Part shown: one piece after another, positions 9,105 to 13,003 of the stretch
Layout of the letters: every line of letters begins with the position of its first letter
Position numbering within the stretch: the stretch's first letter is position 1
Source: Eledone cirrhosa
Taxonomy: Eukaryota
Reading direction: 5' to 3'
Assembly: GCA_964016885.1 (NCBI GenBank)
Contig: OZ024761.1
Coordinates: forward strand, 22,816,001-22,880,000
Length of the DNA stretch: 64,000 bases
Made by a program: the position numbers and the translations under genes
The notes under the pieces: generated by a model
Told to the model about the DNA's origin: nothing
Databases searched by the model: none
Seen by the model: only the letters and a program-made list of their open reading frames with translations

Positions 9105-9472
9105 TTTAAATTAAACATACGGTTTATTGCCAAATATACTATACATACATTCATGTATACATCGCTATTTCAGAGCACAAATCCTAATTTTTAATTTTTG
9201 CTGGACCGGCAAGCGCTCTGTGTAATCAGTTCCTGATTATTACTGGAATTCTATAAGAATCCAGCCTCTATAATTTTCGGCAAAGGCGGGGAGTACGTTG
9301 CTCTGAGGATCGCTAACAGCGTGAAACAGAACATGTCAGCTTCTCTCCCTTCGTTTGCCGAAAAAAGAAGTAAGTGTCATAGTCACTATTTTAAAAATGA
9401 TAGTGCAGGGTCTTCAAAATGTTTTTAATTAAACATACGGTATATTGCCAAATATACTATACATACATTCAT
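9104..9472 (+). mobile_element. About 318-nt HHR-containing unit with terminal direct repeat (retrozyme/pLTR-like)
   Basis: About 50-bp direct repeat at 9104-9153 and 9422-9472. HHR at 9300-9340. Sibling at 12835-13150(-). Confidence 0.8.
9300..9340 (+). ncRNA. Type I hammerhead ribozyme, canonical core
   Basis: gct-CTGAGGA-t-cgc-taaca-gcg-t-GAAAC-agaacat-GTC-agc. Confidence 0.8.
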
Positions 9473-9653
9473 ATATATATATATATATATATACACAAAG
9501 AGGGTCTGGTAAGATTCCAGTTGGACCATAACGCAACAGAGTACTCAATACTTAAGTTAGTAGAGTGGGTAATAGGAAAAGTTCGGATCTAGCTGAGCTG
9601 ACGAAACGGCCGGAGTGAGCCGTCGGGGTCCTGACTCTTTTCCTTTCTCTCCC

Positions 9654-9730
<77 letters not shown>

Positions 9731-9737
9731 ATATCTA

Positions 9738-9772
<35 letters not shown>

Positions 9773-9898
9773 TAAAATAACAGATTGAAGTTTAAGCAAA
9801 GAATCGCTGCTTTCACCCTTAACGGGATCTTATATATTTGATATATATTTATCCTTATCGAGTCCTCTTTGGATTTTAGTCTTCACATTTATTATTAT

Positions 9899-9937
<39 letters not shown>

Positions 9938-10494
9938 CGTAACTAAGTTTATTTACGCATTCAATATTGACGGAATCAAACGGATGCTGCTTTAAAACTT
10001 GAAGCGATAATATGTAATGTATACTGAGAGTTGTAACAATATAGGATAAGAAAATAGTTTGAAGACGTTTAGCTAACTCACCGACAATATGACACGTTAT
10101 ATATAAGCCTGTGTGAAGGTGTAGGGTTTCCACAGGGTCGGAGTTACTATTAAGGTCAACTAGGCAGCCAACTAAGATACATATCTAAGAGAGACCCATT
10201 ACTAAATATTAGCGGATCACAGTTTTGTAAAAAAAAAGGTTACAAAAAAAAAAAAAAAAATATATATATATATGTTCCTTCGGGTCTCAAATACTCGTTC
10301 TCCCTCCCCAGCTTATTAGTTTTTCAAATTTTTTTTTTCCGACCACGTCCCTCGTTCTTATTCCAGCACCAGTTCTTATTTCACCCCACCCCTCGCTTAT
10401 TAAATTTTGCTAATATATCTCCGTCGAAATTTTATTTTAACTGCTGACATTCCTGTGATAATTAATTTTCTTTAGACATTTAAAAAACATTATA

Positions 10495-10966
10495 CAGGGT
10501 AGTCCGGAAGTCTTGCCACCCCCTACCAAAAAGTAATGAGAAACAGTTTATGTTCCCATCGCAGTATCGTCCTCTTCGGAGGAGCTGGTTTACCAAATCT
10601 TGCAGTGAAGTTATTTCACACATCCTCCATACTCTTGCCAGAATACACACGACCATGTGTCCATACACTTGCAAGCAGCCTCTCTTCCAAACTGTAGAAG
10701 ATTTGAAATAGAAAATTATATTATTATTATTATTATTATTATATATTATATATTATAATTAATTGTTTCTACATTTGGCACAAGGCCAGCAATTACCCAG
10801 TACATTACTGGTACTTTATTTTATCGACCCCCGTAAGGATGAAAGGCAAAGTTAACCTCGGCGGGATTAATAATTAATGATATTATATATTATATTATTA
10901 AAACAAAACATAACGAAAATTAAAACAATATGTGACAAAGGGTGACAAGACTTTCGGACCACCCTG
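10495..10966. mobile_element. Tc1/mariner-type non-autonomous element with internal SINE fragment
   Basis: TIR cagggt.gtccg.aagtcttg.caccc / gggtgacaagactttcggaccaccctg. Confidence 0.75.
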
Positions 10967-11449
10967 AGTGTTCTCTAGCTTAGACTGGTACAGCTTTTAT
11001 CGACCTCGAATGGATGAAAGGCGGGATTTGAACTCAGAGAGCAGAGAACCAGAACCAACGCCACAAAGCATTTAATCCGCCTTTTGATTAAGAAAAAAAA
11101 AACAAAAAAAAAAAAAATGGAAAAAAAAACAAACAAACATTTTTTTTAAGCTCACAACCTTTTAATAACTTTATTGTGACAACTTGTTGCAGGAAAGTAT
11201 TCAGATATTTGGTTGCAACATGGTAGTCTGAAATCTCAGTTGAAACTCTAGCGAGGCATACGCCATTTGCAATCTCAAAGGCGTCTTGATCTTGGTTAGG
11301 TAGGAGAATGTAGAATCGCAGCAATAAGGGGTTGAAAAGCAAGAGAGTATTTTTCGTACATGTTGCCGAAGGTAAGGGTATTCGTATTCTATTACATTTG
11401 TCCATATCTCAATCGCATCTTTTTTAGCGTCAAGCGGGAATTTAATATA

Positions 11450-12024
11450 CAGGGTGGTCCGAAAGTCTTGCCACCCCCTACCAAAAAATAATAAGAAACA
11501 GTTTATGTTCCCATCGCAGTATCGTCCTCTTCGGAGGAGCTGGTTTACCGAATCTTGCAGTCAGGTCATGTCACACATCCTCCATGCTCTTGCCAGAATA
11601 CACACGATCACGTGTCCATACACTTGCAAGCAACCTCACTTCCAAACTGGAGGAGCTTTGAAATAGAAAATTAGATTATTATTGGCAGTATCGGTAGAGG
11701 GTCGGACGCCATGCTTTGTAGCATAGAGTTACGCCCCTTTACGGCCTGAGTTCAAATCCCGCCGAGGTTAACTTTGCCTTTCATCCTTACGGGGACGATA
11801 AAATAAAGTACCAGTAATACACTGGGATAATTGCTGGCCTTGTGCCAACTGTAGAAACAATTATTATTATCATATATTATAATTAATTGTTTCTACTTTA
11901 GGCACAAGGCCAGCAATAACCCAGTGTATTACTGGTAAATTAATGATATTATATATTATATATTATATATTATTTTATTAAAACAATATGTGACAAAGGG
12001 TGACAAGACTTTCGGAGCACCCTG
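11450..12024. mobile_element. Second copy of the same Tc1/mariner-type element, TA target duplication, SINE inside
   Basis: ta|cagggtggtccgaaagtcttgccaccc ... gggtgacaagactttcggagcaccctg|ta. Confidence 0.8.
11683..11870 (+). mobile_element. Full-length tRNA-derived SINE nested in the mariner-type element
   Basis: Same family as 5799-5984; has A/B boxes and an (ATT)n tail. Confidence 0.85.
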
Positions 12025-12958
12025 TACATTCTAGAATTCAGAACTAAGCTATGAGCGCAGAAAGTGTTGAAATAACCGCTATGAACTACTAGTATTTTAA
12101 ATTCTGGTTGTCAGTGTGAATTATTTCGATAAATTTTCTTATACTCTTTGGTATTCAAAATACGTTCATCTTATGTTTTAAATTAAAATAACACGAGGTA
12201 AACAAAAACCTATTAATAAAAAATAAAAAATTGTTTGAAATTTTTGATTCCTTCAAAAGGCCGCATATAATGGCTTAGAAGGCTCCAGGGACCCCATCTC
12301 TGCTCTAGTCACAGGGTCCTAAGTTACTTTAAATCTGGTCCGGAAAGGAACTGTCAGACAGATAATAAAGCAACGATATATCCAGCTCAACCTCAAAGAA
12401 TTTAATTAGCTACCAGAGATTTGATTCCAATTTTTCGGTCTTTTTAACACACACACACTGTATTAAGACTGGAATCAAATTACTTTTAAAAGTGTCCCGA
12501 AAAACTAGTCTCGGCACAGTTCATGATAAGACCAAACATTCTTGCCATAAGAAATTATATTTATTCAGACATGATAGGTCTTCCGTCGGTTATCGACGAC
12601 GAAGGGTTCACTCAACTAAGGTTTTCATCATTTATAAAGAGTTGGAATGGAGAGGACTTTCGTCAGTTGCCGACGATGAACATTCAAGGGTTCGATCAAC
12701 TAAAGTTTCTATCATTTACAAATAGTTGAAGTGGATCTGCGTCAGTTTCAACGACGAGCGTTTCAATTGTTTGATCGATGCTCTAATAAATCTCCTGTGT
12801 AATAGGAGTGTAAATGATGGCATATATATAAATATGAATGTATGTATAGTATATTTGGCAATATACCGTATGCTTAATTAAAAACATTTAGAAGACCATT
12901 CACTATCAGTTTTAAAGTAGTGACTATGTCACTTATATTTTCGGCAAAAGCTGGGAGA

Positions 12959-13003
12959 GTGGCTGACAGCTGTTTCTCGCTGCTTGGCGTTTATCAAAGC
13001 CAC
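12959..13003 (-). ncRNA. Type I hammerhead ribozyme with U3-A8 core variant
   Basis: gtggct-TTGATAA-a-cgc-caagca-gcg-a-GAAAC-agct-GTC-agccac. 6-bp stem I and palindromic stem III/loop. Confidence 0.8.

Follow-up and report, generated by a model that had tools for sequence, protein, structure and literature searches.

A C3-G8 to U3-A8 switch in the hammerhead motif of a likely retrozyme family of Eledone cirrhosa

Introduction

Two sibling repeats in the genome of the octopod Eledone cirrhosa carry hammerhead cores that differ at both members of one pair: CTGAGGA has C3 and G8, TTGATAA has U3 and A8. The question raised by this locus is whether such a double change is an accident of decaying copies or a sign of selection on cleavage, and how it came about. 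The analysis covers a 64-kb window (the whole stretch of contig OZ024761.1 under study, in which both copies lie) and public sequencing reads placed on one of the two copies.

Natural covariation from C3-G8 to U3-A8, as well as a U10.1-U11.1 mismatch, was reported by Perreault et al. 2011, and the U3-A8 double change had earlier been shown to be active in vitro (PMC3088659). According to the same source, U.U is the best-tolerated mismatch at 10.1-11.1. Cervera and De la Pena 2014 found the U3-A8 form (~1,300) by homology to a C3-G8 Penelope element of schistosomes, their own descriptor having missed it (PMC4209133). Since natural U3-A8 hammerheads are already in print (PMC3088659; PMC4209133), most of the surprise is gone. 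The original prediction took U3-A8 to be a tolerated double substitution. This holds as far as activity in vitro and natural occurrence are concerned (PMC3088659), but tolerance depends on context: when the core of a type III hammerhead was mutated in all pairs, activity was rescued by the G-C swap and by no other double mutant, U3-A8 included, all of which stayed low (PMC9901934). A literature search under the mutation names C3U and G8A found nothing.

A 318-nt repeat in two copies

Copy A spans 9098-9472 on the plus strand and consists of a 318-nt unit plus a terminal redundancy of ~57 nt, or ~1.2 units (repeat starts at 9098 and 9416). Its start had been placed at 9104 and must be moved to 9098. 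It is flanked on both sides by (TA)n tracts, in which a target-site duplication would not stand out, and has a GC content of 0.371. Copy B (~12835-13150, minus strand) has its 3' end at the same base and is truncated at the 5' side; it amounts to less than one unit, and its 5' piece of ~30 nt (~13119-13150) is inverted. Self-comparison of the window aligns the two copies over 294 nt with 86.4% identity. The conserved-flank pattern of the repeat detects exactly copies A and B in the window and nothing in 100 shuffles, and two such patterns matched 0 stretches of metagenome contigs. Both copies have a single ribozyme; neither is a tandem.

The unit has several attributes of a non-LTR retrozyme: it falls within the 150-450 nt range, its GC content is under 50% and it is non-coding, the longest ATG frame wholly within the element being of 34 aa. 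It also folds as a stable self-paired RNA (z -4.3 for 9104-9424), and so does its reverse complement (z -3.5). A tRNA gene search of the whole window returned none. The abundant GAAACGGC repeat adjoins both copies, likely because they share (TA)n targets. It was also considered as a hammerhead carrier and rejected, as it has no upstream core.

Copy A exceeds one unit in length and runs uninterrupted through the predicted cut, relative to which it is circularly permuted, its start lying ~240 nt upstream. This combination would fit a circular or multimeric RNA template that was reverse-transcribed over more than one round, a model of which has been described (PMC7761336).

A possible source of the reverse transcriptase lies in the same window. 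An open frame of 1167 aa (17007-20510, minus strand) contains the motifs YSRYVDD and YIGET, which we take to be of the RT type and the GIY-YIG type, respectively. It matches best, at 68%, a protein of Octopus vulgaris annotated as reverse transcriptase domain-containing; neither Pfam nor PDB gave a hit. The frame would thus belong to a Penelope-like element, a candidate mobiliser of the repeat. Inverted 5' pieces have been described for Penelope-type insertions (PMC8557442). The self-comparison of the window detects no similarity between the 318-nt unit and the Penelope-like element. Penelope clades that lack hammerheads amplify well (PMC8557442), so copy number is no proof of a need for cleavage.

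Hammerhead motifs of copies A and B

In copy A, the core CTGAGGA occupies 9303-9309 on the plus strand, with C3 at 9303 and G8 at 9308. The motif (9303-9337) continues with stem II (9310-9322), GAAA (9323-9326), stem III (9327-9335), U16.1 (9336) and C17 (9337), so that the predicted cut, after a GUC triplet, falls at 9337/9338. Stem II has 4 bp on a U10.1.U11.1 mismatch and stem III has 2 bp. Stem I is extended, giving a hairpin of 9274-9364 with outer arms 9274-9293 and 9345-9364, and the folding z-score of 9272-9368 is -3.88.

In copy B, which is read on the minus strand, the core TTGATAA occupies 12997-12991, with U3 at 12997 and A8 at 12992. The motif (12997-12965) comprises stem II (12990-12977), GAAA (12976-12973), stem III (12972-12967), U16.1 (12966) and C17 (12965), with the predicted cut, again after GUC, at 12965/12964. 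Stem II has 3 bp on an A10.1.A11.1 mismatch, and stem III is the palindrome CAGCTG. The hairpin (12935-13028) folds with a z-score of -3.69; its proximal stem I is formed by 13003-12998 and 12964-12959, and two G-to-A changes (13022, 13021) break the outer stem I.

Both sibling cores are therefore present as originally described, each with stem II, GAAA, a short stem III, GUC and a stem I partner. The stems had been said to match otherwise. Their fold indeed agrees, but their sequence does not: the copies differ at 18 of 88 aligned positions of the hairpin against 13 of 185 in the flanks (Fisher p=0.002). The nine other core positions are identical, N7 has changed, and at the base of stem II U.U in copy A is replaced by A.A in copy B. 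Taken together, the alignments and predicted folds indicate that A and B are members of one repeat with type I hammerhead motifs, in which C3-G8 is replaced by U3-A8 in copy B.

Covariance models give these motifs little support. Rfam returned for copy B one sub-threshold Hammerhead_HH9 match (12958-13003; 14.5 bits against a gathering threshold of 52, E 0.57) and no hammerhead match at 9303 in copy A or at 63048, a further locus described below. In a scan of the whole window, no hammerhead appears among the 150 matches listed out of 560, nearly all of which are miRNA models on microsatellites or inverted repeats.

Other U3-A8 hammerheads in the window

The prediction that U3-A8 recurs in two more families is borne out. 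TTGAAAA is found twice and TTGAGAA once, all on the minus strand; the positions first given for them (28343, 43576 and 63042) are those of their last bases, and the cores start at 28349, 43582 and 63048. The first two belong to one family, with 91% identity over 58 nt, and 63048 represents the other.

The 28349 locus (28323-28349) is a minimal hammerhead with a G10.1-C11.1 pair, a palindromic stem III, a weak stem I of only 2 bp and the triplet GUA. The inverted, truncated arm of the same insertion (28387-28445, plus strand) also has TTGAAAA and is 96.6% identical. The second copy of the family (43553-43582) has nearly lost stem I, which is too poor for a stricter descriptor; the descriptor scan detected this copy only when stems I and III were left out. 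The third U3-A8 family (63013-63048) has a single copy in the window, the triplet GUA and one mismatch in stem II, and it folds no better than shuffles (z -0.17).

Constrained folds of A, B and 63048 all give three helices with an open helix I, and the hammerhead fold lies above the minimum-energy fold by 5.3, 5.8 and 13.2 kcal/mol, respectively. Bases 10.1 and 11.1, usually a G-C pair in hammerheads, are paired at 28349, 43582 and 63048 and unpaired in A (U.U) and B (A.A); A.A is found at this place also at 26345. Self-pairing of stem III amounts to -10 to -12.5 kcal/mol for the palindromes of B, 28349 and 63048, versus -6.0 for A, which suggests that the palindromic forms would cleave as dimers.

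The window also contains a C3-G8 minimal hammerhead (16715-16750, minus strand), ~260 nt downstream of the 1167-aa frame. It has the 7-8 bp helix II and the extra base after A9 of the Penelope minimal form. The 28349 and 43582 loci share with that form the palindromic minimal helix III, the G10.1-C11.1 pair and the short helix I, but their helix II is of 4 bp without the extra base. No RT/GIY-YIG frame of at least 120 aa lies beside either of them, although an inverted truncated arm is present at 28387-28445.

A change at position 8 alone does occur in dead copies, in line with decay. Thus, a decayed minimal hammerhead at 5225-5258 (minus strand) has G8A alone and hence C3.A8, while its homologue at ~59830-59900 (plus strand) has kept G8 and has U4C.

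Pairing of positions 3 and 8

A strict descriptor that leaves positions 3 and 8 free finds 12 matches in the 64-kb window: nine are C-G, three are U-A and none has any of the other 14 pairs. The background is 0.5 matches per window over all pairs (60 block shuffles). The pairing of positions 3 and 8 among the strict matches has a Fisher p of 0.0045 by copy and 0.012 by family (6 and 3). A looser scan, without stems I and III, yields 19 matches, namely 12 C-G (of which two pairs are arms of one inverted repeat), 5 U-A, 1 C-A and 1 A-U, against 6.0 matches in shuffles, 0.47 of them U-A.

Several U3-A8 candidates were discarded. At 4796(+) the genuine core, CCGAAGA, lies 7 nt downstream; 43006(-) and 60971(+) have no fitting stems or no GAAA; 53505(+) is doubtful, since it is without stem I and 0.47 U-A matches are expected by chance. 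The match at 4538(-) was set aside as due to chance.

Decay of individual copies would give many more single than double mutants. In the window the U-A matches outnumber the cores mismatched at 3/8 (3 against 0 in the strict scan), which argues that the double change is not copy-level decay, the more so as U3 is common to many divergent copies (see below). On this point the original prediction stands, as does its warning that a strict CTGANGA search would miss copies, U3-A8 accounting for 3 of the 12 strict matches.

The U3 form in public reads

Four of the eight listed public runs were placed on 12880-13110, with copy B as the reference, at a likeness of at least 80%. Run X1 may be the one from which the window itself derives; X6 and X7 carry the same species label but stem from other samples. 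C is found at position 3 in 14 of 75 reads (X6), in 8 of 52 reads (X7) and in 192 of a contig depth of 2349, spread over 14 contigs (X1); these shares refer to the copy B reference, on which C3-type reads are under-represented, and are not a family-wide ratio. In X1 a neighbouring variant at 12999, two bases from position 3, occurs in 48 contigs. Together these counts indicate many divergent copies without C3. The U3 form is thus, on the read evidence, a diversified multi-copy lineage and not one copy's accident.

For position 8, no row with G is found among the best 40 of 189 rows, where rows at a 15-20% share do appear. G8 would therefore not be the majority, and most placed copies are likely U3-A8. 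In simulations, C3-G8 reads fail to span the core on the copy B reference under two of five scorings; otherwise the G8 count is about equal to the C3 count (43 versus 47). The absent G8 row is compatible with linkage of positions 3 and 8, a linkage that we infer indirectly.

In X6, read depth per bin rises above 1,000 where flank coverage is highest, against ~70-80 over the core, so the ribozyme module would be missing from most relatives or diverge from that of copy B. Among the loose ends, 37 contigs give a consensus whose outer stem I is different; it keeps the register of copy B and finishes with TTGAT (agreement 0.61). In a second organism, one contig has an A-type arm and then CTGA. The breaks in the outer stem of copy B are often absent from X6 reads: 13021 differs in 65 of 82 and 13022 in 40 of 88. 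The loose ends at 12935 (606 and 548 reads) were considered as a sign of mostly C3-G8 copies and discounted, as they stop before the core.

Origin of the U3-A8 lineage

The switch between the C-G and U-A siblings is one evolutionary event. We consider it quite probable that A and B belong to a non-LTR retrozyme family in which U3-A8 arose once, in a founder, by two pair-restoring transitions, and that this lineage then kept amplifying. The transitions C3U and G8A would have restored the 3-8 pair, the direction from C-G to U-A being assumed from the consensus. Multimeric transcripts from arrays elsewhere in the genome would self-cleave after GUC; for the U3-A8 form, cleavage would probably be slow and proceed in dimers formed through the palindromic stem III. 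The monomers would be ligated into circles, which a Penelope-type RT/endonuclease would go around more than once while copying them into (TA)n tracts. Intermediates without the pair, U3.G8 or C3.A8, could persist in inactive genomic copies, and a copy that regained a Watson-Crick pair would be a likely new source.

The commonest changes in the family are C>T (32 places in X6) and G>A (27 places). C3U and G8A belong to this class, which makes U-A the Watson-Crick alternative most easily reached. If copies with a regained pair found lineages, the recurrence of U-A in unrelated families would need nothing new, and the same filter is likely behind U3-A8 in the 28349 and 63048 families. Judged from sequence, selection on cleavage likely lies behind the U3-A8 pair, and the swapped pair in the A/B family was likely inherited from active founder elements.

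The same bias towards transitions can be read otherwise. The U3-A8 lineage might have amplified without cleavage of its own, either trans-complemented or by SINE-like copying, its pair being a founder accident favoured by transition and AT bias. The chance of both transitions at the named pair is 0.003-0.011, which is not negligible over many old families, and copy B has a second non-canonical feature in its A.A at 10.1-11.1. Such a history would also agree with the proliferation of hammerhead-less Penelope clades (PMC8557442) and with the failure of U3-A8 to be rescued in one mutational scan (PMC9901934). Without selection, however, amplified lineages with a single mismatch should exceed double changes, whereas three unrelated families are U-A and no strict match is mismatched; moreover, the other nine core positions are intact. 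We regard such hitch-hiking as unlikely.

The repeat could also be a non-autonomous derivative of a Penelope pseudo-LTR, with a hammerhead that trims the transcript end and a redundancy that results from partial-tandem insertion. Such a derivation would suit the inverted 5' piece of copy B and the (TA)n targets, as well as the presence in the window of an intact Penelope-like frame that has a hammerhead of its own. In addition, U3-A8 is documented in Penelope-type hammerheads (PMC4209133). For 28349 and 43582 it is indeed the likelier reading. For A and B it seems quite unlikely, since the minimal form has a 7-8 bp helix II, whereas A and B have stems II of 3-4 bp together with a long stem I and a genuine stem III, and since the unit has no similarity to the Penelope-like element in the self-comparison. 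Pure copy-level decay or chance resemblance is very improbable and already largely refuted by the read data and the strict scan: sub-threshold Rfam scores, the poor fold of 63048 and the decayed cores of the window would speak for it, but 12 strict matches stand against 0.5 in shuffles, U3 occurs in many divergent copies, and three arms of the 28349 family share U3-A8.

An extension of the founder model is more speculative, and we hold it to be rather unlikely. Between flanks that are conserved, the hammerhead would evolve fast and be exchangeable as a module; one amplified lineage would have shifted in a single block to a ribozyme that is slow and dimer-gated, with U3-A8, A.A at the base of stem II and a palindromic stem III, and that leaves circles intact.

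Comparison with known systems

Of the known systems, Cercyon of Schistosoma mansoni (PMC4209133) resembles the present loci in its 3-8 covariation, dispersed single motifs, opposite-strand pairs, palindromic stem III and high variability within the genome. It differs from A and B in having minimal ribozymes with a 7-8 bp helix II and pseudo-LTRs, whereas these have stems of canonical size in a 318-nt non-coding unit. The 28349 and 43582 loci are closer to the schistosome form than A and B are, but have a 4-bp helix II. Both natural variants of Perreault et al. 2011 (PMC3088659), U3-A8 and U10.1-U11.1, are seen here; in the accessible text of that paper U3-A8 is assigned to neither a host nor a repeat family, and its combination with A10.1.A11.1 is not described.

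The non-LTR retrozymes of coral, mussel and axolotl (PMC7229834) have, like the present family, a type I hammerhead, a monomer of 150-450 nt, GC under 50% and co-occurring Penelope-like elements. HHR_Amex2 of axolotl is like copy A in its U.U at the base of helix II and its 2-bp helix III (PMC7229834). Those retrozymes form tandem arrays, with circRNA and cleavage demonstrated, whereas here there are a 1.2-unit and a truncated copy, known as DNA sequence. The main text of PMC7229834 mentions neither octopus nor covariation. In the giant squid genome, 235 Hammerhead_1 matches have been counted (PMC6962438). A literature search on octopus, mollusc and cephalopod hammerheads and retrozymes, which covered main texts and few subscription journals, found no paper on an octopus retrozyme.

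Implications

The feature belongs to a known class: in what is likely a new retrozyme family, a multi-copy lineage carries a core variant described before. The family would add an octopod member to the retrozymes. Hammerhead censuses that rely on a fixed CUGANGA core undercount, as the share of U3-A8 in the strict scan illustrates and as had been pointed out for schistosomes. What is of use is a family with both core states in many copies, in which covariation and intermediates can be measured on one tree. Should the reading of an exchangeable module and a dimer-gated ribozyme be true, hundreds of dated copies would form a natural record of a catalytic core crossing a fitness valley, intermediates included.

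Hammerhead-like motifs of the window

At least 17 hammerhead-like motifs, belonging to about ten families, occur in the whole 64 kb window, and several form inverted pairs placed tail-to-tail (44744/44756, 47151/47159, 58453/58593 and 26092/26345). The G-C pair at the base of stem II is replaced by U.U or A.A at 26345(+), 50825(+), 47151(-) and 24075(+), a replacement that recurs across several unrelated families here. Motifs with a U4C change (core CCGAAGA or CCGATGA) are found at 4803(+), about 8790(-) and 59830-59900(+), the first two also sharing a CAATTG stem III. The motif at 53505(+), with a good core and no stem I, is possibly a fourth minimal hammerhead of the U3-A8 type; its resemblance to this type may be due to chance.

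Associated repeats

The Penelope-like frame at 17007-20510(-) runs for 1167 aa without interruption, includes an Asn-rich insert and is followed downstream by a minimal hammerhead at 16750(-). The interval 35546-36280 holds pieces of a relative, which are accompanied by a hammerhead at 35340(-).

An abundant non-coding repeat, frequently in palindromic pairs, is hosted by (TA)n tracts; 807-944, 1454-1745, 6000-6220, 9452-9698, 13154-13340, 22030-22545, 44167-44678, 45153-45525 and 62684-63320 are nine intervals among others. It has a GAAACGGC motif, upstream of which no hammerhead core was found in this repeat.

Between the sibling copies with C3-G8 and U3-A8 cores, the hairpins (9274-9364(+) and 12935-13028(-)) have diverged about three times as much as the flanks (18/88 versus 13/185). 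In public reads, the same flanks are joined to several alternative sequences. The family of these two copies looks modular in build.
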